This document shows positions 23,332 to 54,596 of a stretch of DNA of 64,000 bases, piece by piece. Numbering within the stretch: position 1 is the first letter of the stretch; every line of letters begins with the position of its first letter. The translations under genes and the position numbers were made by a program. The stretch is from positions 2,031 through 66,030 of the forward strand of contig CAZAPM010000012.1 of assembly GCA_964487475.1 (NCBI GenBank), given 5' to 3'. This DNA is from an uncultured Planctomycetales bacterium. GTDB taxonomy: Bacteria; Omnitrophota; Gorgyraeia; Gygaellales; Profunditerraquicolaceae. Under the pieces are notes generated by a model. That model did no database searches, had not been told where the DNA came from, and saw only the letters and a program-made list of their open reading frames with translations.

Positions 23332-24945
<1,614 letters not shown>

Positions 24946-26164: not shown

Positions 26165-27757
26165 TTATTTCCCGTTCAGTATCTTTTCCGCCTCCTTGCG
26201 ATACGCATCCATGACGTAGGGGATACCGCTTATCTCCTCCGCCTCTCTCGTCAGGGTCATCAGGTCCCGGCGGGAGATGGTGGTTAGATTGAAGTTGCGG
26301 GACCCGGCCATCAACTGCTGCAGCCCGACCTTGATGCGCTGGCTGAAGGTGTAAATACCGATGGCTCCCATGGGCATGGTCTCTATCTCTTTGCCGTACT
26401 TCTCCGCCAGCTCTTCATAGCAGACGAAGATCTCCTCGGGCTTCACGCCGTATTCGGCGATCTGCGGCGGGAGGTTGTTGTTCTTGATCCACTCGCCTAT
26501 GTTCTTGCCCACGAAGCCCGGGATCATCAACGCCCGGCCCATGCACACCGCCTTGACGTACGGTGCGCCCATGGCGATCGCCTTGAAGATATGGTCCTCG
26601 AGCGCGAAACCGCCGGCGATGGCGATATCCGGGACGCGGACCTTCTTGGCGCGCAGCTTCTCGCAGAATTCGTAGGTGAGCGCCTGCAGATAGAACGTAG
26701 GCGTGCCCCACTCCTGCATCATCCTCCACGGGCTCATGCCGGTGCCGCCCGGAGCTCCGTCGATGGTCAGCAGGTCGACTTTGGCCTCGGCGGAGAACCG
26801 CAGGGCCTGCGCCAGCTCCACCATCGAATACGCGCCGGTCTTCAGGGTGATGCGCTTGAACCCGAGATCGCGCAGCCGCTTGATCTCCTTCATGAACCCG
26901 TCCTCAGAGACGAAGCCTAACCGGGAGTGGCGCTCGAATTCCTTGATGGCGCCGGCCTTATACGCCTCCTGGTTCGCTTTCAGGGTGGGATCGGGAGTGA
27001 CGATGTACCCGCGCTTCTTGAGTTCCAGCGCGCGGTCCAGGGTCTTGACCTTGATCTCGCCGCCGATGCACTTGGCGCCCTGGCCCCACTTCAGTTCGAT
27101 GGTATCCAGTTTATGCTTCTTGCGCACGTACTCCGCCACGCCTAAACGGGTATCCTCTACGTTCATCTGCACCAGGATCTCGCCGTAGCCGTCGTGATAG
27201 CGCTTGTAGACCTCGATGCGGCGGTCCATATCCGGGGCATTGACGATCTTGCCCTTGGCATCGAGCTCGAGCTTGGGATCGATACCGCAGACGTTCTCGC
27301 CGCAGACCAGGGTGATGCCGGAGATCGCCGTACCCACCGCAAAATGCTCCCAGTTCTTGCGGGCGATCTCGGTCGACCCCAGGGCGCCTGTGAACATAGG
27401 CACCTTCATCTTGACCTTCTTATCCCACCCGTACTCGGTCTCGGTGTTCACCGCGGGGAAGATCGCGGTATCCGGCCCGCCCTCCACACCCTTAGGCAGC
27501 CCTTTGGCCCCGGCCGCATATCCCTGGATGTTCAGGTGGGAATAATCGACCGGATAATCCTTGTCCGCGCCGGCGGTCATTTCGCCGAAGGGGCCGGGAT
27601 AGATCACCTCCCTGCCTCTGAAGGAAGACTTGAACACCTCGCAGTTTCCCCGGCAGCTTTCCAGACAGCGGGAACAAAGACCGGAACAAGGGACGACGTT
27701 TTTCGACCTGTTGAAGGTCCGGCTGGCATCGTTGCCGCCCGGTGAGCGCAAATTCAT
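26165..27757 (-). CDS. Glutamate synthase-family protein (archaeal-type FMN-binding GltB domain with N-terminal Cys cluster)
   Basis: 530 aa; CSGLCSRCLESCRGNC Fe-S-like cluster; FMN-domain motif TIDGAPGGTGMSP. Confidence 0.75.
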   Translation of the reverse strand: MNLRSPGGNDASRTFNRSKNVVPCSGLCSRCLESCRGNCEVFKSSFRGREVIYPGPFGEMTAGADKDYPVDYSHLNIQGYAAGAKGLPKGVEGGPDTAIFPAVNTETEYGWDKKVKMKVPMFTGALGSTEIARKNWEHFAVGTAISGITLVCGENVCGIDPKLELDAKGKIVNAPDMDRRIEVYKRYHDGYGEILVQMNVEDTRLGVAEYVRKKHKLDTIELKWGQGAKCIGGEIKVKTLDRALELKKRGYIVTPDPTLKANQEAYKAGAIKEFERHSRLGFVSEDGFMKEIKRLRDLGFKRITLKTGAYSMVELAQALRFSAEAKVDLLTIDGAPGGTGMSPWRMMQEWGTPTFYLQALTYEFCEKLRAKKVRVPDIAIAGGFALEDHIFKAIAMGAPYVKAVCMGRALMIPGFVGKNIGEWIKNNNLPPQIAEYGVKPEEIFVCYEELAEKYGKEIETMPMGAIGIYTFSQRIKVGLQQLMAGSRNFNLTTISRRDLMTLTREAEEISGIPYVMDAYRKEAEKILNGK

Positions 27758-27825
27758 ACCACTCCTCCTTTGTTGGTTGGTGCTTATTTATACATACTAT
27801 GCATGTATTTTAGGCAGGAAAGAGC

Positions 27826-27915
27826 AAAAAAAAAGACAAAAACGACCCAGCCCACAGGGACGTCTTTGTCCAAATCGGTAATTTTCAGCATAACACAAAG
27901 CCTTACGCTGTCAAA
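27826..27915 (-). promoter_or_regulatory. Leader of the gltB-domain gene: sigma70-like promoter (TTGACA-N16-TATGCT) followed by a 10-bp-stem hairpin plus U9 (attenuator-like), then a palindrome ATACATGCATAGTATGTAT before the RBS
   Basis: Minus-strand reading: TTGACAGCGTAAGGCTTTGTGTTATGCT…GACAAAGACGTCCCTGTGGGCTGGGTCGTTTTTGTCTTTTTTTTT…AAGGAGGAGTGGTATG. Confidence 0.5.
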
Positions 27916-38805: not shown

Positions 38806-38924
38806 CGTGATTAATTTTTATGCAACGCACCGTTAAAAAAAAGCGCCCAAGAAAAGGCCTCTCCCCTTGAACGCCGGCGTTCATGCAACCAATCACGCGG
38901 TACGGCACTGTACCCCGCCATATA

Positions 38925-38954
38925 TACAAGTAAAAAAAAGCCGCGGGTGGTAAC
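38925..38954 (-). promoter_or_regulatory. Site D of the conserved bipartite motif GTTACCA-N14-TTACTTGTA, upstream of the Fis-like-gltBD operon
   Basis: Plus strand reads TACAAGTAA-N14-TGGTAAC. The GTTACCA half lies in the 3' arm of the glnN terminator stem. Confidence 0.6.
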
Positions 38955-41183: not shown

Positions 41184-41348
41184 CTTCCTCCTTGACTGGT
41201 TTCTCTAATTGGACCATTTTACCACATCCCGGAACCGGCGCACACAAAAAAAAGACGTCCGCAGGCAAAACCGCTCTGCCTCGAACGCCGCTGTTCGCTG
41301 CTAAATCACGCACCCCTCAGTGCCTAAAAATCGACCACCCACATAAAG

Positions 41349-41378
41349 TACAAGTAAAACTGCAGACTTATTGGTAAC
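41349..41378 (-). promoter_or_regulatory. Site A of the conserved bipartite motif GTTACCA-N14-TTACTTGTA, 166 nt upstream of glnN
   Basis: Plus strand: tacaagtaa aactgcagacttat tggtaac. Confidence 0.6.
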
Positions 41379-43136: not shown

Positions 43137-43146
43137 TTGCTGCAAC

Positions 43147-43198
43147 AAAAAACGTTCATCCCCCCCGGATGGTCCGGAGAGGATGAACGCCATTGTTC
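43147..43198 (-). terminator. Strong intrinsic terminator in the amt1 leader, with an overlapping GAAC-AATGGC-GTTC hexaloop hairpin (alternative structure)
   Basis: Minus strand: AGAACAATGGC GTTCATCC TCTCCGGACCATCCGGGGG GGATGAAC GTTTTTT. The upstream small hairpin (stem GAAC/GTTC) shares its GTTC with the terminator's 5' arm. Confidence 0.65.
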
Positions 43199-43204
43199 TT
43201 TTAG

Positions 43205-43234
43205 TACAAGTAAATCGGAGGAGCGTTTGGTAAC
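43205..43234 (-). promoter_or_regulatory. Site B of the conserved bipartite motif GTTACCA-N14-TTACTTGTA, 175 nt upstream of amt1
   Basis: Plus strand: tacaagtaa atcggaggagcgtt tggtaac. The GGGTTAC half also forms an inverted repeat, GTAACCC-TTGCT-GGGTTAC. Confidence 0.6.
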
Positions 43235-45037: not shown

Positions 45038-45090
45038 AAAAAAGACGCCTTCCATCCTCTCTCTGAGGATCAAAGACGTCTGCGTCTTTC
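45038..45090 (-). terminator. Nested-hairpin intrinsic terminator in the amt2 leader
   Basis: Minus strand: AAAGACGCAGACGTCTTT…AGACGTC-TTTG-ATCCTC-AGAGA-GAGGAT-GGAA-GGCGTCT-TTTTTT. Confidence 0.55.
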
Positions 45091-45181
45091 TGCCTAAAAC
45101 AAAATGGGCGCCCGCTGCTATCGCGAACGCCTTTGTATTCTTTGCACACATCCCCGTGTGCCGTGCTGCCTGCTACAGTAC

Positions 45182-45211
45182 TACAAGTAAATTACGGACA
45201 ACCCTGGTAAC
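45182..45211 (-). promoter_or_regulatory. Site C of the conserved bipartite motif GTTACCA-N14-TTACTTGTA, 175 nt upstream of amt2 (overlaps the sigma gene stop)
   Basis: Plus strand: tacaagtaa attacggacaaccc tggtaac. Confidence 0.6.
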
Positions 45212-45752
45212 ACCCCGCATCCAAATGGGTGCGGCACTTCTCCTGCATGGTCTTGCGCAGCTTCACCACCCGCACGTGGGAGACCCCCAGACGGCTTCCG
45301 ATCTCCCGCACGGTCAGTCCGGAAAGGCTTAAACGGAACACCTGCTTCTCCCTGTCCGTAAGGCCGTTATTATTGATCGCCTCGATGATCAGGGACGCAT
45401 TCACCGTATCGAATGCGCTGGGGACGGTCTTCTCGGAAAGTATATCCTCCAGGGAGCACTCCGTATCGCCGCTTCCGACACACGCTTCCAGGCTGGTCAG
45501 GGAAGCTTTGTCCATATGCGTGCGCAGAAAATTCTTCAGATGAAAATAGCACCCCTGCAGGATATAGCTCCTGGTCTTGTGCTCCCAGGCGCCCTGCATA
45601 TACCTGTTCCAGAGGAAAAGTACCGCCTCCTGATAGAGGTCCTCGGCCTGCAGCGCAGGCGAACGCGCCTGCATCCCCGCCCGGTAGGAGATCCTCCTGA
45701 GGGTCACCGACACGTCCTTGAGTAAAGTTTCGAATGTGTTCTTCATAATCAA
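45192..45752 (-). CDS. RNA polymerase sigma-70-family factor, ECF-like (regions 2 and 4 only), Cys-rich C-terminus
   Basis: 186 aa; region 2 AEDLYQEAVLFLWNRY; region 4 HTH LTDREKQVFRLSLSGLTVREIGSRLGVSHVRVVKLR. Confidence 0.75.
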   Translation of the reverse strand: MIMKNTFETLLKDVSVTLRRISYRAGMQARSPALQAEDLYQEAVLFLWNRYMQGAWEHKTRSYILQGCYFHLKNFLRTHMDKASLTSLEACVGSGDTECSLEDILSEKTVPSAFDTVNASLIIEAINNNGLTDREKQVFRLSLSGLTVREIGSRLGVSHVRVVKLRKTMQEKCRTHLDAGCYQGCP

Positions 45753-45783
45753 ATAAAAAACGCCCTTCCTCCCGCTGCGCGGG

Positions 45784-45926
45784 AAAAAGGACGCCGTAGT
45801 CCTTACTTAACAAAAAAGGCCCTCCGCAGGCTAAACCTTACATTCGCCCTTGGAAGACCTCATAGTCTTCGCTGATTACAACCCTGTAATCACTCTAGAT
45901 TATAGCATCCCTGGAGAGGATGTCAA
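45784..45926 (-). promoter_or_regulatory. Consensus sigma70 promoter (TTGACA-N16-TATAAT) overlapping the nadE stop, with a +1 palindromic operator TGATTACA-GGGT-TGTAATCA, followed by a ~140-nt leader with three hairpins (two with U-tracts) before the sigma gene
   Basis: Minus strand: GCTTGACATCCTCTCCAGGGATGCTATAATCTAGAGTGATTACAGGGTTGTAATCAGC GAAGAC-TATGAG-GTCTTC … GGCC-TTTTTT … AGGAC-TACGGC-GTCCT-TTTTT-CCCGC-GCA-GCGGG AGGAAGGGCG-N12-ATG. Confidence 0.6.
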
Positions 45927-47578
45927 GCCTTTTTCGCGCCTTTGCCGTAATGGTTGGTGATGGGCATGCGCCGGTCGCGGCCGAACGCCTTGGGCGTGAT
46001 CTTCACTCCCGGCGGGGCCTGACGCCGCTTATACTCGCTGACATCGACCATCCGCGCCACGCGCCGCACCACCTCCCGGTCGAAACCCCGGGCCGCCACC
46101 TGCGCGACATCCTTATCCTCCTCCACATACGCCTTGAGGATCGGGTCGAGCACGGGATACTCCGGCAGCGTATCGCTGTCCTTCTGGCCGTACCGCAGCT
46201 CGGCGGTCGGCGCCTTCTTCAATACATTCTCCGGGATCAGAGGCCCTGCGGCACTTTGGCTGTTACGCCAGAGGCAAAGGTCATACACCAGCATCTTGGG
46301 CACGTCCTTGATCACGGCAAAACCGCCGGCCATGTCCCCGTAGAGCGTGGCATAGCCGGTGCTCATCTCGGACTTATTCCCCGTGGTGAGGACCAGCCAG
46401 TTGAATTTGTTGGAGAAGGCCATCAGCATGGTGCCGCGGATACGCGCCTGCAGGTTTTCTTCGGCGATATTACGGGCCGCGCCGGCAAAATGCGCCTCCA
46501 GGGTCAGCAGGAACACCTTGTAGATATGGTCGATGGGGATCTCTTTCCATCCGATCCCGAGATTACGGGCCAGTTCCTGCGCATCCCGGCGCGATTCCTG
46601 CGAAGAATACCGGGAAGGCATGAAGATCCCCGTCACCTGCTGCGGGCCTAACGCATCAGCCGCCAGGGCCGCTACCAGCGCGGAATCCACCCCGCCGCTT
46701 AAGCCTACCACCACTTTTTCGAAACCGTTCTTGCGCACATAATCCTTCAGCCCCAGCACCAGGGCCCCGTAGGCTTCGGCCTCGGGCGCAAGTTCCTGCG
46801 CGCGCGATGATCCCGCAGGGTTTGCCAGGTCCACCAGCAGCAGCTCCTCTTCGAACGCCCGGGCTAACGCGACCACTTTGCCGGACGCATCCACCACCAT
46901 GCTCTGGCCGTCGAAGACCAGCTCGTCCTGGCCGCCGACCATGTTCACATACGCAACCGTCACCTTGTGCTTCCTGGCCTGCCGCCGGATGATCTCCTGT
47001 CTCTGCGCGAACTTCCCCAGGTGATACGGGGAGGCGTTAAGCGCCAGGATGACCCGGCACCCCTTCATCGCCTGCATGCGCAGCGGCCCTTCCCCGGACC
47101 AGATATCCTCGCAGATGTTCACGCCCAGAAGCGTTCCCCCCACGCGGAGGGTCTGCGCCTTCGAGGCCGGAGTGAAATATCTTTTTTCGTCGAATACCCC
47201 GTAATTAGGCAGGAGCATCTTATGCGTCACGCTGCGGATGCGGCCCTCCGCGATCAGCGCGGCGGCATTATAGAGCTTGCCCTCCCGGCGGTCGACGAAT
47301 CCCACCAGCGCAGACGTGCCCTTGATGCGGGGCGCCAGCGCTTTCAACGCGGCGAGATTGTCGCGAATGAACGCATCCTTGCACAACAGGTCTTCGGGAG
47401 GGTAACCGGTCACCGTCAATTCGGGGAAGATCACCGCGTCCGCCTGCGCCTCCGCTGCCCTGGCGGCATACTCCGCGATCAACGCGCAGTTGCCTTCCAG
47501 GTCGCCGACGGTACAATTGATCTGGGCCAGCGCCAGGCGCAGCGCGTTACGGGAAGAAGCGGTCTTATGCCTGCTCAT
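45923..47578 (-). CDS. nadE: Glutamine-dependent NAD+ synthetase (CN-hydrolase plus NAD synthetase domains)
   Basis: 551 aa; N-terminal nitrilase-like domain (LRLALAQINCTVGD) and C-terminal PP-loop GLSGGVDSALVAALA. Confidence 0.88.
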   Translation of the reverse strand: MSRHKTASSRNALRLALAQINCTVGDLEGNCALIAEYAARAAEAQADAVIFPELTVTGYPPEDLLCKDAFIRDNLAALKALAPRIKGTSALVGFVDRREGKLYNAAALIAEGRIRSVTHKMLLPNYGVFDEKRYFTPASKAQTLRVGGTLLGVNICEDIWSGEGPLRMQAMKGCRVILALNASPYHLGKFAQRQEIIRRQARKHKVTVAYVNMVGGQDELVFDGQSMVVDASGKVVALARAFEEELLLVDLANPAGSSRAQELAPEAEAYGALVLGLKDYVRKNGFEKVVVGLSGGVDSALVAALAADALGPQQVTGIFMPSRYSSQESRRDAQELARNLGIGWKEIPIDHIYKVFLLTLEAHFAGAARNIAEENLQARIRGTMLMAFSNKFNWLVLTTGNKSEMSTGYATLYGDMAGGFAVIKDVPKMLVYDLCLWRNSQSAAGPLIPENVLKKAPTAELRYGQKDSDTLPEYPVLDPILKAYVEEDKDVAQVAARGFDREVVRRVARMVDVSEYKRRQAPPGVKITPKAFGRDRRMPITNHYGKGAKKA

Positions 47579-47833
47579 CGAGATCCTCTCGCAGAAGCAA
47601 AGTCACGGCGTTGTGCCGCACCTGCATGAAACCTTTCGCGGTGAGGCGTATCGACCGGGTAACGGCATCCGGCAGGGTCAGGGAGAGCGTTCCCGGCACG
47701 ACATTGGCCATCAGCGCCGCATGGTCCGCCAGCACCTCCAGGTACCCCGACTCGCAGGGGACCTTCAGGGAGACCGCGCCTCCGTCAAAAAGGATGCGCT
47801 GGGGGCCGAGGATGGAAACGGCGAACTCCTTCA

Positions 47834-47834
<1 letters not shown>
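47565..47834 (-). CDS. atpC: ATP synthase epsilon subunit, truncated form (beta-sandwich domain only)
   Basis: 89 aa; RILFDGGAVSLKVPCESGYLEVLADHAALMANVVPG matches the epsilon N-domain. There is no C-terminal helical hairpin. Confidence 0.8.
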
Positions 47835-49240
<1,406 letters not shown>

Positions 49241-50089
49241 CTATCCTTTCAATGCTTCAGCCGAAGAGACGATCTCGATGATCTCCCGGGTGATATTCGC
49301 CTGCCGGATCTTATTGCGGGTCAGGATCAGCTTCTCCAGAAGCTCGACCGCGTTCTTGGTCGCTTCGCCCATGGCCATAGCCCGGGACTGATGCTCGGCG
49401 CAGAACGCCTCAAGGAGCAGCATCCTGATCCGGCTCTCCAGATACAAGGGCAGCAGCCCCTCCAGTATTTCGCTCAAGGAAGATTCCGGGATATGCTCCT
49501 GCGCTGCGCCCGGCGCGCACTCCAGAGGCAATATCCGCTCGCATACGACGGAAACCCGGGCGCCGCTTTCGGAGCGGGCGTACACCGCGTGCACTTCTCC
49601 GGTTTGCCCCTGCGTCAAAAGCTCCTCCAGCGCACGGCTTAACGACTGGCCGACCGCCGAAGTATAGCGTCCGTTCAACCCCAGAAAAGACCGCGCTACC
49701 CGGTATCCGCGGCTTTTCAAGGAAGCGAACCCCCTTTTGCCCACCACGATAAGCTCGGTCTCCTCCGCAGTATGTGCTGCCAGCCACTGCTCGGCTGCCC
49801 TCACTACGGATACGGTGTAGGACCCGCAAAGGCCCGCATCAGAGGTCACCACCAGCAGCGCCTTGCGGCGTCCCGACGGCGCCGGGGAAAAAAGCGGGTG
49901 CGAAATATCCTCGCCGCAGGTCGCCAGCGCAGCCAGCATGCTCCGGGCACTGGAAAAATACCGCTGGGCCGCCTCCCGCATCTTCTGCGTGCGCTTAAGC
50001 TTGGAGGAAGAGACCATCTCCATGGCGCGGGTAAGTTTGCGCGTGCTCTCCACTCCCTTGATCCTGGATTTTATGTGGCGCAGCGACAT
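49241..50089 (-). CDS. atpG: ATP synthase gamma subunit
   Basis: Likely start MSLRHIKSRIKGV; gamma-chain helices. Confidence 0.85.
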   Translation of the reverse strand: MSLRHIKSRIKGVESTRKLTRAMEMVSSSKLKRTQKMREAAQRYFSSARSMLAALATCGEDISHPLFSPAPSGRRKALLVVTSDAGLCGSYTVSVVRAAEQWLAAHTAEETELIVVGKRGFASLKSRGYRVARSFLGLNGRYTSAVGQSLSRALEELLTQGQTGEVHAVYARSESGARVSVVCERILPLECAPGAAQEHIPESSLSEILEGLLPLYLESRIRMLLLEAFCAEHQSRAMAMGEATKNAVELLEKLILTRNKIRQANITREIIEIVSSAEALKG

Positions 50090-50102
50090 CACCGCCATGG
50101 CA

Positions 50103-51629
50103 TCACTCCCGGTCTCCCGCAAACTCCGCGCCGAACTGCCGCAGAGCTTCGTCCAGTTCCCGGGTCACCTCCGCATCCAGCGCCTGTTTCTTCTCGATGG
50201 AGCGCTCCAGCGCCGGAAACTTCGCGTCGGCGAACGCCAGGAACTTCTCCTCGAACTCCCTCACCCGGGAGACCGGCAATTCATCCAGCGCGCCGTGCGT
50301 GCCCGCGTACAAGAGCATCACCTGCCGGGCCATAGGCATGGGTTTGAACTGATCCTGCTTCAAAAGCTCTACCATGCGCTCGCCCCGGGTCAGCTGCGCC
50401 TGGGTGGTCTTCTCGATCTCTGAACCGAACTGCGCGAAGGTGACCAGCTCCCGGTACTGCGCCAGGTCGATGCGCAGTTTGCCGGACACCTGCCGCATAG
50501 CCTTAGCCTGGGCTTTGCCTCCGACGCGGGAGACGGAAAGGCCGACATTCACCGCCGGCCTGATCCCCGAATAGAACAGGTCGCTTTCGAGATAGATCTG
50601 CCCGTCGGTGATCGAGATCACGTTCGTCGGGATATAACTGGTGATGTCCCCGGCCTGGGTCTCGATGATGGGAAGCGCGGTCAGGGAGCCTCCCCCTAAG
50701 GAATCGTGCAGCTTGGCCGCCCGCTCCAGCAGGCGCGAATGCAGATAGAAGATATCCCCCGGATACGCCTCGCGTCCCGGCGGACGGCGCAGCAGAAGCG
50801 AGATCTGTCGGTACGCCTGCGCATGCCGGGAAAGGTCGTCGTAGATCACCAGGCAATGCTTTCCGGAATACATGAACTCTTCCCCGATGGCACAGCCGGC
50901 ATACGGCGCCAGGTACTGCAGGGATGCGGACGCGCGGGAAGAGGCGCTCACAATCGTGGTATACTCCATCGCCCCGTACTTTTCCAAAGTCTCCGCCACC
51001 GCCACCACACTCGAGATCTTCTGGCCGATGGCCACATATACGCAATATACCCCCTTGCCCTTCTGATTGATGATGGTGTCCATCGCCAAAGCGGTCTTAC
51101 CCGTCTGGCGGTCGCCGATCACCAGTTCGCGCTGGCCGCGGCCGATGGGGATCATGGAATCGACGGCCTTGATCCCGGTCTGCAGCGGCTCGGTCACGGG
51201 CTGGCGCTGCACCACGCTGGGGGAAGGGGCTTCCAGGGGCCGCGACCTGTTCGTCGCGATGGCTCCCTTGCCGTCGATAGGATTGCCGAGCGCGTTGACC
51301 ACCCTTCCTAAAAGCGCCTCGCCCACCGGCACCTGCGCGATCTTCCCGGTGCGCTTGACCACATCCCCTTCCTTGATGTTGCGGTCGGGATTATCCGGCC
51401 CGAAGATGACCGCGCCGACGGAATCCTCTTCCAGGTTCAGGACCATCCCCATCACGTCGTTGGGGAATTCGATGAGCTCGCCCATCATCACGTCGTCGAG
51501 ACCGTAAATGCGCGCGATGGCATCCCCCACCTGGATGACATTACCGACGGATTCCATGCGCAGGCGGGTGCGGTACTTCTCCAGTTCCTTCCTGATGATC
51601 GAGGTAACCTCTTCGGGCCTTATCTCCAT
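50103..51629 (-). CDS. atpA: ATP synthase alpha subunit
   Basis: 508 aa; Walker [10 protein letters not shown]. Confidence 0.93.
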
Positions 51630-51632
51630 GGA

Positions 51633-52181
51633 TCACTCCACCTCTGCGGTCATAAGTTTCTCTTTCAATTCTGCCAGACGCCGCTGCACGGAACCGTCGA
51701 TGACCGTATTACCGACGCGCACCTGCACTCCCCCCAGCAGATCGGGATCGAGCTCGATGTATAAGTTCAGCTTCTTGTGCAGCCGGCGTTCCAGGGCGTC
51801 TTTAAGCTCCCGGATCGTCTCCGTTTCCAGCGGATAGGAGGTCTTCAGCAGCGCCTCCGTCGCGCCCTCGTGCTCGAAGGTCACGCGCACGTATTCGCAG
51901 ATCTCCTCCAGGTACTCGATGCGGTTCTTTTCGATGAGCAGCTTGACGAAATCCCTGGTCTCGAAGGCGAAATACCCGTAGCGCAGCACCTTGTCGATGA
52001 CCCCGCACTTCTCCTTGAAACCGAACTCCGGATTGACCAGGAAACGGCCGAACTCCGGATTGTTCTGCAGCACGTGGCGCAGATTATGCAGATCCTCCAG
52101 CCCCCGGGCCTTCCCGATGGTCATACGGACGTACGAAAGATAGGCATCGGCGTACCGGCGCACGATGATCGGGCTTTTCAT
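51633..52181 (-). CDS. atpH: ATP synthase delta subunit (OSCP)
   Basis: 182 aa; position in the operon; OSCP-like helices. Confidence 0.8.
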   Translation of the reverse strand: MKSPIIVRRYADAYLSYVRMTIGKARGLEDLHNLRHVLQNNPEFGRFLVNPEFGFKEKCGVIDKVLRYGYFAFETRDFVKLLIEKNRIEYLEEICEYVRVTFEHEGATEALLKTSYPLETETIRELKDALERRLHKKLNLYIELDPDLLGGVQVRVGNTVIDGSVQRRLAELKEKLMTAEVE

Positions 52182-52681
52182 TCCTTCTCCACGGTATCCA
52201 GCTTGTCCAGGAACTCTTTGACCAGCGCTTTATCCTGGGATTCGGTCAGCTTTTCCTGCACCAGATGCTGCGCCGCCTGCAGGGAAAGATCGATGATCTC
52301 TTTTTTCAGCTCGCGCTTTGCCTGGCCCATCTCGTATTTGATATCTTCGCGGGCCTTTTCGATGATCTGCTGGGCATCGACATGCGCCTGCCGGCGGATC
52401 TCGTCCCTGGCCTTCTTGCCTTCATCCACCGCCTCGTTGACCGTACGGCGGGCCATCTCCTGCGCCTGGGAAAGCTGCTGCTGATAACTTTCCTTAAGCC
52501 GGGAGATCTCCTGCTTGGAAGTTTCGATCGCGGCGAACTCTCCGGCGATACGCTCCCGCCTGGCGTCGAGCATCGCCAGCAGCCTCTTCCAGGCGAACGC
52601 CTTCAGCAGGAAGAAAAGGATGAGAAAACTGACCAGCTGCGCGAAGACTTCGCTGGCGCTTATAAGCTTCAGCAGTTCCAT
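52178..52681 (-). CDS. atpF: ATP synthase subunit b
   Basis: 167 aa; one N-terminal TM helix and a long charged coiled coil. Confidence 0.8.
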   Translation of the reverse strand: MELLKLISASEVFAQLVSFLILFFLLKAFAWKRLLAMLDARRERIAGEFAAIETSKQEISRLKESYQQQLSQAQEMARRTVNEAVDEGKKARDEIRRQAHVDAQQIIEKAREDIKYEMGQAKRELKKEIIDLSLQAAQHLVQEKLTESQDKALVKEFLDKLDTVEKE

Positions 52682-52691
52682 ACCCGCTCCT

Positions 52692-52922
52692 TCAGAACTT
52701 GCCCATCAGGATGAAACTGAACACCAGCGCGTAGATCGCGATCGACTCGATGAACGCGCAGCCGATGGTCATGTTGATCAGCAGCTTGTTCGACGCTTCC
52801 GGCTGCCTCCCCATCGCCTCCATGGCGCGGGAAACGGCCATACCCAGCCCTAAGCCGCACCCGAGCGCGGCCATGCCTAAGCCGATAGGCAGACTTATCG
52901 CCAATGCAAACTTGTAATCCAT
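52692..52922 (-). CDS. atpE: ATP synthase subunit c
   Basis: 76 aa; two-helix hairpin with GxGxGxG motif (GLGMAALGCGLGLG) and the conserved carboxylate helix. Confidence 0.88.
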   Translation of the reverse strand: MDYKFALAISLPIGLGMAALGCGLGLGMAVSRAMEAMGRQPEASNKLLINMTIGCAFIESIAIYALVFSFILMGKF

Positions 52923-52935
52923 TTCATTCCTCCTT

Positions 52936-53697
52936 TTAATGATGCGATTCTTGAGCGTTCAAGAATATCGCGAAATACACCGTACTCAACAGACTGAACA
53001 CCAGCGCCTGGATCAGCGCCGCCAGCAGCCCCATGCCCAGCGCAAAGACCGTGAACGGCAGCCCCAGGATGCCGAAGTTCGCGAAGGTCGCCAGCAGCAG
53101 CTCGTCCCCCCAGATATTGCTGCGCAAACGCAGCGCCAGGGACAACGGCTTGAGCAATTCGGTGAGCAAATGCAGGGACAGCATGAACACCGGCAGGATC
53201 AGCGTCCAGGCCATGGCGCCGCGGGGGCTTCCCGCAAGGTGATCGACGTACTTCCTGATCCCCAGGGTCCTGATAGCCATATACTGCACATAGGCGAACA
53301 CGCACAGGGACAACGCGAAGGTCGCGGAGAGGCTGGCCGTGGCCGCTTTCATGAAAGGCAGGAGACCCAGCAGGTTCATGGAGAATATATAGATGAAAAG
53401 GGTGCCGATGAAAGGGGTGAATCTCCGGCCCTGGGGGCCGAGGATCCCGCAGACGAAGGAATCCAGCCCTTCCACCACGGATTCCGCGGCATTCTGCAGT
53501 TTTCCCGGGATGAAGGACGGCGCCCGGGAAGCCGCGAAGGCCAGGACGCTTAAGAGGCCCGCGGCGATCCCCGCGAACGCCACGAACTCCCAATGGCGCA
53601 ACACTGCTGCCGCCGGCAGATGCGGAAAGGCATCGGCCAGCAGCGAGAACACATCGGGTAACTCCGGCAAAACCCCTGCCGCGTGCGACTCGGACAC
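52936..53697 (-). CDS. atpB: ATP synthase subunit a (GTG start)
   Basis: 253 aa; five TM helices; conserved Arg-containing helix (LSLALRLRSNIWGDELLL). Confidence 0.85.
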   Translation of the reverse strand: MSESHAAGVLPELPDVFSLLADAFPHLPAAAVLRHWEFVAFAGIAAGLLSVLAFAASRAPSFIPGKLQNAAESVVEGLDSFVCGILGPQGRRFTPFIGTLFIYIFSMNLLGLLPFMKAATASLSATFALSLCVFAYVQYMAIRTLGIRKYVDHLAGSPRGAMAWTLILPVFMLSLHLLTELLKPLSLALRLRSNIWGDELLLATFANFGILGLPFTVFALGMGLLAALIQALVFSLLSTVYFAIFLNAQESHH

Positions 53698-53766
53698 GTT
53701 TCCCCCTAAAGCAAAAAAGCGTACCTTATCCTCGTTTCAAGAATAGGGACGCCGTTATCCTTTAAC

Positions 53767-53860
53767 AAAAAAACGCTCGCGCATTTCGAGCGAACGTCGT
53801 CATTGCCGCATTACCACTTTGTAATTATTTCAAGTATAGCGCAATTCTCCCGTTTGTCAA
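53767..53860 (-). promoter_or_regulatory. atp operon promoter (TTGACA-N16-TATACT) and ~130-nt leader: a +1 hairpin ATTAC-AAAGTG-GTAAT (hexaloop A1/G4), a 17-nt linker, then the terminator hairpin CGCTCG-AAATGCG-CGAGCG plus U7
   Basis: Minus strand: TTGACAAACGGGAGAATTGCGCTATACTTGAAATAATTACAAAGTGGTAATGCGGCAATGACGACGTTCGCTCGAAATGCGCGAGCGTTTTTTTGTTAAAGGATAACGGCGTCC…AGGGGGAAACGTG(start). Confidence 0.6.
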
Positions 53861-53873
53861 GGAATGAATGCGC

Positions 53874-54596
53874 TTAATGCCGCTTGCCCTTGATCTCGCG
53901 GGCCATGATCACCGCTTCCGCCACCTCGCGCATGGTCTTGCGGGAATCCATGCTCTGCTTCTGGATGAGACGGAACGCCTCCGCGGAGGAGACATTGGCA
54001 TCCTGCGAGAGTATGTCCTTGGCGCGTTCCACGAGCTTGCGGGTCTCCAGCGCTTCCTCGGCGCTTTGGGCGCGCAGGGAAAGCTCGGCGTTCTCGATGG
54101 CGATCGCGGCCTGGTTGGCCACGGCGGTCAGGATCCCCAGCTCGGGCTTGGTGAACTCCCTTTTCTTCGAAGTATAACAGTTCAGCACCCCGATCACCCG
54201 GCCCTTGACGGACAGAGGCACGCAGGCCAAAGACACCAGCCCTTCCTTCGCGGCGATATCCTGGTTCAGATAACGCGCATCCTTGCGCACATCCGGCACG
54301 CAGATAGCCTTGTTCTCTTTCGCCACCAGACCGGCGATCCCCTCGCCGAGCGGGATATTGGGCTTCTTGTTGTAACGCTCCGAGATCGACTGCGTGGATT
54401 TAACCACCAGCTCCTTGCGCTCCGGGTCCAGCAGCATCAGGGAGCAGATGTTGGAGTTCATGATCTCGGCGGTGATGTGCACCACCAGCCGCAGCAGCTC
54501 CTCCAGGTACAACCCCGAAGTGATGAGGTTGGCGACCTTGGAAAGGGCCTCGATCTGCTTAAAGTAGATCTGATAATGCTTGGTCTGCGCAGGCAT
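53874..54596 (-). CDS. GAF-ANTAR two-domain RNA-binding antitermination regulator
   Basis: 240 aa; N-terminal GAF fold; C-terminal ANTAR helices LETRKLVERAKDILSQDANVSSAEAFRLIQKQSMDSRKTMREVAEAVI (AmiR/NasR-type). Confidence 0.8.
   Translation of the reverse strand: MPAQTKHYQIYFKQIEALSKVANLITSGLYLEELLRLVVHITAEIMNSNICSLMLLDPERKELVVKSTQSISERYNKKPNIPLGEGIAGLVAKENKAICVPDVRKDARYLNQDIAAKEGLVSLACVPLSVKGRVIGVLNCYTSKKREFTKPELGILTAVANQAAIAIENAELSLRAQSAEEALETRKLVERAKDILSQDANVSSAEAFRLIQKQSMDSRKTMREVAEAVIMAREIKGKRH

Follow-up and report, generated by a model that had tools for sequence, protein, structure and literature searches.

The RNA targets of ANTAR antitermination proteins are hairpins with six-base loops whose first base is A and whose fourth is G (A1/G4 hexaloops), the second hairpin overlapping a terminator (PMC3369931). 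In EutV, the flipped-out G4 is contacted by Arg142, Lys149, Glu160 and Tyr164, and lengthening the linker between the first and second hairpins (P1 and P2) by 20 nucleotides (nt) abolished antitermination (PMC8934654). Among nitrogen genes, the ANTAR response regulator GnfR relieves termination in Geobacter leaders carrying CAGGCAANGGCGCC, with an AANGGC loop (PMC2995071), and 13 attenuators have been predicted in six transcription units of Desulfotomaculum acetoxidans, with PII, amt, glutamine synthetase (GS) and glutamate synthase (GOGAT) genes (PMC3369931). Proteins that join a GAF domain to ANTAR, one of the commonest ANTAR architectures, were called uncharacterised in papers of 2012 (PMC3369931) and 2020. 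Here we analysed a 64-kb stretch of contig CAZAPM010000012.1 (the window), from an uncultured bacterium of the Omnitrophota, in which a GAF-ANTAR gene is followed by the ATP synthase operon. We are fairly confident that atpB is separated from the GAF-ANTAR gene by a two-stage transcription attenuator of the ANTAR class with its own promoter, relieved by the GAF-ANTAR protein and set within a nitrogen regulon. Such a locus would be a compact and testable system with a sharply defined RNA site (NNAC-AANGGC-GUNN). In a phylum without a genetic system, it would imply that nitrogen status is tied directly to membrane energetics by regulation, and its site set could be used for annotating nitrogen regulons in metagenome-assembled genomes of Omnitrophota, Nitrospirota and Syntrophales.

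The GAF-ANTAR gene (53874..54596, on the minus strand like all genes, leaders and repeats of the window located below) is the last in an Lrp-aminotransferase-ANTAR cluster and encodes a one-component regulator of 240 amino acids (aa). Pfam recognised a GAF_2 domain (82 bits) and, at residues 179-230, a C-terminal ANTAR domain (67 bits against the PF03861 cut-off of 27.3). Together with the open reading frame coordinates, these matches bear out the initial annotation of this DNA, which had placed a GAF-ANTAR gene directly upstream of atpBEFHAGDC. The ANTAR domain could be aligned to those of Rv1626 (1s8n), EutV (6wsh) and NasR (4akk). In the 6wsh alignment, the G4-contacting Arg and Lys of EutV were kept, its stacking Tyr was replaced by Phe, as in Rv1626, and its Glu by Ser, the mapping of these residues (Arg142, Lys149, Glu160, Tyr164) assuming a two-residue offset between chain and published numbering. 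The NCBIfam models nearest to the GAF domain were the N-terminal GAF domains of PtsP (EI-Ntr) and NifA. Glutamine and 2-oxoglutarate are the signals to which those domains respond. Given these nearest models and the content of the regulon described below, the signal is most likely nitrogen status, sensed as 2-oxoglutarate or glutamine. Homologs of the protein number thousands, and the ones 70-82% identical to it carry the names Omnitrophota or Omnitrophica; no link between ANTAR proteins and Omnitrophota was found in the literature searched.

The spacer from the GAF-ANTAR gene to atpB is 176 nt long. Starting 13 nt past the ANTAR stop codon, a sigma-70-type promoter, TTGACA-N16-TATACT, matches the consensus at 11 of 12 positions (53833..53860; TTGACA at 53860-53855, TATACT at 53838-53833, 16-nt spacer). 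With one promoter-like site found in the 2.2-kb region and 0.8 expected from shuffles, this match is not significant alone. Over the whole window and both strands, six sites reached at least 10 of 12 matches, three of which head ANTAR-type leaders, and the position of the atp promoter is kept in homologous leaders. The first hairpin, P1 (AUUAC-AAAGUG-GUAAU, 53810..53825), has a 5-bp stem and an A1/G4 hexaloop (-1.0 kcal/mol; ATTAC at 53825-53821, AAAGTG at 53820-53815, GTAAT at 53814-53810). It aligns with P1 of the leaders of L017, L030, L036 and the window sigma-factor gene, the outer pair having changed on both sides from AU to UA; L-numbers denote related loci, comprising 80 genome loci that hold GAF-ANTAR relatives plus further loci such as those from a scan with AtpB. 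A 17-nt linker leads from P1 to the core stem of T1, an intrinsic terminator (53767..53798, stem within 53798-53772, U7 at 53773-53767; -13.1 kcal/mol) whose core CGCTCG-AAATGCG-CGAGCG at 53792-53774 runs into T7 at 53773-53767. T1 is conserved in L017 and L023.

Promoter, AAAGTG hairpin, 17-nt linker and terminator with its U-run had all been described in the initial annotation and lie where it put them on the minus strand. Its picture of the leader was incomplete, having missed a second hairpin and terminator at 53760-53713. The hairpin, P3 (GGAU-AACGGC-GUCC, 53747..53760), has a 4-bp stem and an A1/G4 hexaloop (-2.0 kcal/mol), and the 5′ arm of T2 starts with the final three bases of the P3 loop together with the P3 3′ arm. 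This second intrinsic terminator, with a long imperfect stem (53713..53753, stem 53753-53719, U6 53718-53713), lies 15 nt before the GTG of atpB. Its energy was -14.9 kcal/mol in the terminator scan and -15.5 kcal/mol (z -3.2) by folding, and its stem shows compensatory changes among homologous leaders. The overlap of P3 (53760-53747) with T2 (53753-53713) is the defining geometry of an ANTAR antiterminator.

The competition of a second hairpin with a terminator, also expected in the initial annotation, is canonical at P3/T2 and was not borne out in that form at T1. P1 does not overlap T1, and the hairpin in the P2 position is degenerate, AAU-GACGAC-GUU (53793..53804, from the sequence and the leader alignment), with 3 bp and a loop G4. 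It starts 5 nt 3′ of P1 and overlaps the 5′ arm of T1. A canonical P2 was sought at T1 of the atp leader and not found; the candidates were this 3-bp hairpin, which had no stable fold of its own in RNAfold, and a hairpin of 8 bp, closed by an ACGA tetraloop, that RNAfold gave as an alternative. L023 has a canonical GGAC-AAUGAU-GUUC at the homologous position. P3 lacks a partner hairpin within 40 nt, P1 being 49 nt upstream. No relevant family was returned from Rfam 15 by a gathering-threshold search of the whole window or by an E-value search of 53650-53900.

Downstream of T2, the GTG start codon of atpB at 53697 opens the transcription unit atpB-E-F-H-A-G-D-C plus nadE (45923..53697, from Pfam and open reading frame coordinates). 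The product of atpC (47565-47834) has 89 aa and consists of the epsilon N-terminal beta-sandwich without the C-terminal helical domain. Since nadE, which encodes a glutamine-dependent NAD synthetase (45923-47578), overlaps atpC by 14 nt, the controlled unit would be atpBEFHAGDC-nadE, with nadE as its last gene. Transcripts from the TTGACA/TATACT promoter, as well as read-through from the Lrp-aminotransferase-ANTAR genes, would meet T1 and then T2. In the folding model, the terminators (-13.1 and -15.5 kcal/mol) were shown to outcompete the hexaloop hairpins (-1.0 and -2.0 kcal/mol), so that the predicted default outcome is termination. An activated GAF-ANTAR dimer would bind P1, then the weak P2, then P3; with P2 and P3 held closed, the 5′ arms of T1 and T2 could not pair, and RNA polymerase would proceed into atpBEFHAGDC-nadE. 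We infer this binding and the relief of the terminators from the leader geometry and the precedents of EutV, NasR and GnfR, and the regulator is likely to be the GAF-ANTAR protein encoded next to the leader.

Statistics over the related loci showed that the six-base loop is a specific register. In the register test, sites were picked only by a G in the loop, a 3′ arm reading GUYY and overlap with a terminator, the 5′ arm being ignored. A fully paired 4-nt 5′ arm was found at loop size 6 in 61 of 120 distinct sites, compared with 1, 1, 1, 1, 5 and 1 of the 120 at loop sizes 3, 4, 5, 7, 8 and 9. The arms of the 61 sites covary (GGAC/GUCC in 17, AGAC/GUCU in 16, GAAC/GUUC in 5), 36 of them have A at loop position 1, and the loop consensus is AANGGC. 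The invariance of G4 in this set is circular because the loop G was fixed by site selection; two scans free of this constraint had G4 at 75 of 112 and 104 of 196 sites. In an alignment of 55 sequences (A1), 40 cells had changed on both sides, against 17.3 in shuffles, with none of 500 shuffles as high, and slid registers scored far lower. The inner four pairs of A1 had been selected for pairing, and the non-circular tests are the register test and the outer pairs.

A covariance search for the motif, suggested in the initial annotation, was made over the 64-kb window with model R1, which was built from 55 sites of other genomes, contained no window sequence and was run with filters off. The best window matches were 45781-45808 (22.9 bits), 43177-43204, 27850-27877, 53739-53766, 45066-45093, 45847-45874 and 38861-38888. 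The atp P3 site (53739-53766) ranked fourth in the window with 15.8 bits (E = 0.16). Seven of the eight best window matches were leader sites overlapped by a terminator, and the other was the opposite-strand image of the top match.

The terminator scan of the window placed the hairpin-over-terminator module at seven further minus-strand sites, all in 5′ leaders, where the same terminator-proximal overlap holds. It recurs at least seven times in the window, in the leaders of a gene for an extracytoplasmic function (ECF)-type sigma factor, two amt-glnK units, glnN, fis-gltBD, a gltS-like (glutamate-synthase-like) gene and atp. One regulator gene and at least eight attenuators lie within 30 kb. 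The full sigma-gene leader (45754..45926) is paralogous to the atp leader and runs from TTGACA-N16-TATAAT through P1 GAUUAC-AGGGUU-GUAAUC and P2 GAAGAC-UAUGAG-GUCUUC over T1 to P3 GGAC-UACGGC-GUCC over T2 (R1 22.9 and 13.5 bits). The gene behind it (45192-45746, 184 aa) matched TIGR02937, a model of the sigma-70/ECF superfamily, over its full length (51.3 bits), its product matched only the GerE/sigma-70 region 4 in Pfam, and it is the commonest gene behind an ANTAR leader cassette in related genomes. The gltS-like gene (26165-27757) has the leader 27825..27914, with TTGACA-N16-TATGCT and GGAC-AAAGAC-GUCC over a terminator (R1 16.5 bits).

The other four leaders open with a different, promoter-like element that is bipartite and exactly conserved, GTTACCA-N13-TTTACTTGTA, at 45211-45182, 43234-43205, 41378-41349 and 38954-38925. 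In the amt1-glnK leader (45043..45211) it is followed by P1 GCACAC-GGGGAU-GUGUGC, T1 and AGAC-GCAGAC-GUCU over T2 (R1 15.7 bits), and in the amt2-glnK leader (43145..43234) by GAAC-AAUGGC-GUUC (43198-43185) over a terminator (R1 16.7 bits). The glnN leader (41246..41378) has P1 GCAC-UGAGGG-GUGC, a 13-nt linker and P2 GAAC-AGCGGC-GUUC (41296-41283) over a terminator; the fis-gltB-gltD leader (38834..38954) has P1 GGUAC-AGUGCC-GUACC (about 38914-38899), a 17-nt linker and P2 GAAC-GCCGGC-GUUC over a terminator (R1 12.1 bits). The hexaloops AGCGGC at glnN, AATGGC at amt and AGTGCC at fis/gltB, already pointed out in the initial annotation, are all present among these hairpins. Linkers between P1 and P2 are 13-26 nt in the nitrogen-gene leaders and 1-7 nt in the leaders homologous to that of atp. 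As a 10-mer, GTTACCA-N13-TTTACTTGTA has four exact occurrences, and five matches with at most one mismatch against 0.68 expected. In L003-L045 and L112, 17 sites precede dual-hexaloop leaders, and in related genomes the element is often found where the ECF-type sigma gene ends. The ECF-type sigma factor probably uses it as promoter, and its reading by that factor would make an ANTAR-sigma feed-forward loop.

Another leader was noted beside this set. A gene at 23332-24933, a candidate CTP synthase gene (pyrG) by a sequence stretch and its length, has a leader of about 300 nt (25266-24933) with TTGACA-N16-TATACT, a 6-bp hairpin GUUAAC-AACGGG-GUUAAC (hexaloop A1, G4) and then a long-range U8/A9 terminator-like stem. 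A CTP synthase would use glutamine. The candidate pyrG may be another, atypical member of the regulon.

The closest described systems resemble this arrangement in different ways. Like EutV/EutW of the Enterococcus faecalis eut genes (Ramesh 2012, PMC3369931; Walshe 2022, PMC8934654), the locus has A1/G4 hexaloops, a proximal hairpin over the 5′ arm of the terminator, several attenuators under one putative regulator and, as aligned to 6wsh, the Arg, Lys and an aromatic stacking residue in ANTAR. It differs in having a GAF one-component sensor instead of a phosphorylated receiver domain, predicted nitrogen-assimilation and atp targets instead of ethanolamine use, sequence-constrained stems (NNAC...GUNN) with an AANGGC loop, tandem terminators in one leader, and some leaders with one hairpin only. 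GnfK/GnfR of Geobacter sulfurreducens, where GnfR is a REC-ANTAR protein (Ueki and Lovley 2010, PMC2995071), likewise controls a nitrogen regulon by antitermination, with amtB and glnK among its targets and with CAGGCAANGGCGCC upstream of and overlapping the terminator, an AANGGC hexaloop standing between complementary arms. However, the arms are GGC/GCC there and GGAC/GUCC here, and GnfR is a two-component response regulator under sigma-54/GnfLM, whereas here a GAF one-component protein is accompanied by nitrogen operons with GTTACCA-N13-TTTACTTGTA, probably served by the ECF-type sigma factor; no atp target has been reported in Geobacter. The predicted Desulfotomaculum acetoxidans regulon similarly has many attenuators before PII, amt, GS and GOGAT genes, with more than one per transcription unit, but belongs to another phylum and shows no ATP synthase, NAD synthetase or sigma-factor targets in PMC3369931, including its supplements. 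NasR (NIT-ANTAR) and AmiR/AmiC, which are one-component or partner-switch systems, share a ligand-controlled ANTAR output without phosphorylation and a leader with an A1/G4 hexaloop hairpin and terminator, but each serves a single operon (nasF, amiE), through NIT or AmiC sensors.

In line with the remark in the initial annotation that atp would be an unusual ANTAR target, ATP synthase was not among the ANTAR targets in the text and supplements of PMC3369931, a 2025 review, an actinobacterial survey or full-text searches, and no ATP synthase operon under antitermination control was found in the literature searched. ANTAR control of nitrogen genes is already known from experiments (Geobacter GnfR, NasR, AmiR, EutV) and from prediction, and what stands out here is the unusual atp-nadE target together with the uncharacterised GAF sensor class. 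The further proposal of a conditional terminator of ANTAR type in the atp leader, shared with nitrogen-gene leaders, gains support from the hexaloop register, the compensatory changes, R1, the leader homology and the match to GnfR sites.

In the related genomes, synteny is conserved, with Lrp, an aminotransferase and sometimes glnA preceding GAF-ANTAR, and the spacer 3′ of the orthologous ANTAR genes very often carries promoter, P1, P2/T1 and P3/T2 (dozens of genomes). Across the loci, the genes behind such modules were the sigma gene, nadE, gltS-like, amt, glnN, gdhA and nfnA/gltD-like genes, as well as ANTAR paralogs, Mrp/Nuo-like Proton_antipo_M genes and atp. The module thus precedes nitrogen genes both in the window and in relatives (nadE, gdhA, glnN, amt, ANTAR paralogs), which points to nitrogen assimilation as the function of the regulon and would place the atp operon inside it in this lineage. 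As the same signal stands before the neighbouring nitrogen-assimilation operons, energy and nitrogen genes are probably switched together. Why atp should belong is a matter of speculation: GS-GOGAT is costly in ATP, and uptake through Amt requires a membrane potential.

The window and L017 have atp leaders that are homologous over their full length (ANTAR 75% identical, AtpB about 60%), with promoter, P1, the ATGAYGTTCGCT part of T1, the U-run, GGATAAYGGCGTCC and T2 aligned. They also align with the nadE leaders of L030 and L036 and with the window sigma leader. On the homologous leaders, RNAalifold recovered P1, T1 and T2 with compensatory changes in 12 of 28 pairs. The leader is present before atp in L011 as well as L017, and absent in L012, though atp adjoins the ANTAR gene there. 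A metagenome scan with AtpB gave 28 loci, among which only L081 had a clear leader. It consists of TTGACA-N17-TAAAAT and GAU-UAAGGC-GUC with an overlapping terminator, the upstream gene not being ANTAR, and its site, with 17.2 bits, is the best R1 match in 70 kb of atp loci. Before atp, L082 shows a T1-like terminator alone, without a canonical hairpin. Four atp operons thus have a clear ANTAR-type leader (window, L011, L017, L081). Because few atp operons carry it and related loci lack it, the trait is lineage-specific, though real.

Three observations concern other users of the module. In L015 (about 1273-1400), L109 (3724-3848) and L118 (3224-3348), the closest relatives (ANTAR 81% identical), a Proton_antipo_M (Mrp/Nuo-like) complex lies behind an ANTAR leader with AGGY-AUUGAA/AAUGAA-GUCU and a terminator, and is by sequence a second ion-translocating machine behind an ANTAR attenuator. 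In L045 (4780-5000) and L046 (3790-3975), a second GAF-ANTAR paralog (56-57% identical) is immediately preceded by two or three hairpin-terminator modules in tandem, an arrangement suggestive of GAF-ANTAR paralogs that regulate themselves or one another. Outside Omnitrophota, GGAY-NNNGNC-GUCC over a terminator was seen in Nitrospirota (L067 at 1336, L068 at 4822, L079 at 5042 and 6159) and in Syntrophales (L063 at 4017, L070 at 4717), adjoining GAF-ANTAR homologs of 44-56% identity and preceding nadE and a gltS-like gene. The occurrence in these groups indicates a system much wider than one phylum.

Several points weigh against an attenuator of atp relieved by the GAF-ANTAR protein. The control of atp is a prediction from sequence and folding. 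Individual R1 E-values are marginal, including that of the atp site, although they are weak because the model is short (28 positions). P1 and P3 are 49 nt apart, when 20 added nt of linker sufficed to abolish antitermination by EutV (PMC8934654). T1 may not be relieved canonically, P2 having only 3 bp and G instead of A at loop position 1. The atp operon adjoins the ANTAR gene in only four (window, L011, L012, L017) of about 45 orthologous loci, and a general ANTAR-atp adjacency was rejected on this count. At the seven closest ANTAR orthologs examined, the next gene is nadE, a Mrp/Nuo-like gene or the sigma gene, never atp, and no such leader was found at six related atp loci (L085, L087, L089/L092, L091, L093, L095). 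Since nadE is often the direct neighbour or the leader target elsewhere, the leader may originally have belonged to nadE, with atp inserted behind it. Finally, 64 kb of the genome are visible, so that the true regulator could be an ANTAR paralog outside the window.

The possible origin at nadE leads to the first alternative, that the leader is ancestral to an ANTAR-nadE or ANTAR-sigma junction and atp was inserted behind it, so that atp would be controlled only incidentally or would escape control, for instance through a weak promoter within the leader. The usual genes downstream of ANTAR are nadE, the sigma gene, glnN and Mrp/Nuo-like genes, nadE overlaps atpC and ends the same transcription unit, the nadE leaders of L030 and L036 align with the atp leader, and L023 has the same leader type before an apparent N-terminal nadE remnant (read from the DNA, with no alignment) and then the sigma gene; the six atp loci without a leader fit as well. 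Between T1 and T2 there is also an internal promoter candidate, TTGTTA-N17-TATTCT, whose transcript would lack the 5′ arm of T2. With 8 of 12 matches, however, it falls below the scan threshold, and P1, T1, P3 and T2 are all kept between the window and L017 even though AtpB is only about 60% identical. Leaders before atp also occur in L011 and in the different context of L081. This alternative is plausible as to origin, but it is contradicted by the conservation in these three loci, and we consider it unlikely.

A second alternative takes promoter, P1 and T1 as a gene of their own for a small RNA of about 60 nt, whose hexaloop would titrate or buffer the regulator in the manner of EutX/Rli55 and leave only P3/T2 to attenuate atp. 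A near-consensus promoter and a good terminator lie within about 60 nt, the promoter-P1-T1 unit accompanies the ANTAR gene in many genomes whatever gene is next, and T1 here lacks a canonical competing hairpin; moreover, EutX carries ANTAR sites, and a single hexaloop suffices for binding (PMC8934654). In most homologous leaders, however, P2 is canonical and lies over T1, which argues for T1 as a regulated terminator, not a fixed 3′ end, and the window promoter scan showed no independent promoter for the downstream gene. The likeness to EutX/Rli55 is one of layout only, without the riboswitch part, and the proposal is compatible with attenuation of atp by P3/T2 under GAF-ANTAR. As a replacement for the two-stage attenuator we regard it as quite improbable.

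That another factor, either an ANTAR paralog or an unrelated RNA-binding protein, reads the attenuators while the GAF-ANTAR gene is only a member of the regulon seems very doubtful, because, for all that L045 and L046 hold a 56% identical paralog itself behind such a leader and that 64 kb are in view, the motif fits the ANTAR definition, dozens of genomes have the cassette physically attached to a member of this ortholog group, and the sole ANTAR gene of the window is this one. A plain terminator of the upstream operon at T1, with hairpins by chance, was rejected because of the conservation and the hexaloop-register statistics.

A broader model can be put forward, though only tentatively, since we rate it at somewhat less than an even chance: the GAF-ANTAR protein would be a master nitrogen-status regulator of an Omnitrophota clade, with relatives in Nitrospirota and Syntrophales, working through a feed-forward loop and drawing in membrane-energising machines. 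Terminators would be relieved in front of the ECF-type sigma gene and also in the leaders of the operons that this factor would drive from its putative GTTACCA-N13-TTTACTTGTA promoters. The response to nitrogen limitation would include the F-type ATPase in this genome and, in sister genomes, Mrp/Nuo-like antiporter-type complexes; one rationale would be the supply of power for electrogenic ammonium uptake and ATP-costly GS-GOGAT assimilation.

Two further elements were seen in the window. A structured element of about 85 nt occurs in two 5′ untranslated regions, those of amt2 (about 43140-43050) and candidate pyrG (about 25075-24990), 3′ of their terminators. Its helices are an outer stem CACACCC...GGGGUGUG, CCCCGC...GCGGGG as inner hairpin, and a further hairpin CACCCGUC-(G/A)AUCCGAU(AUA/UAA)-GACGGGGUG, its stems co-varying around a conserved GAUCCGAU loop, and simpler copies lie near 25115-25090 and 43310-43280. 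The element had no Rfam match, and a search of the related loci for the GAUCCGAU-loop hairpin found almost nothing; it could be an undescribed cis-regulatory RNA. The other is a unit of about 15 nt, (A/G)GGGAC(G/A)CCCCUUUA, present in tandem and inverted copies that flank the Lrp gene (56505-56430 and 55830-55775). One set forms a large hairpin after an HD-GYP/HAMP gene, the second set is found between the Lrp gene and the start of the aminotransferase gene, and these repeats are candidates for a repetitive extragenic palindromic (REP)-like element or for protein-binding sites.

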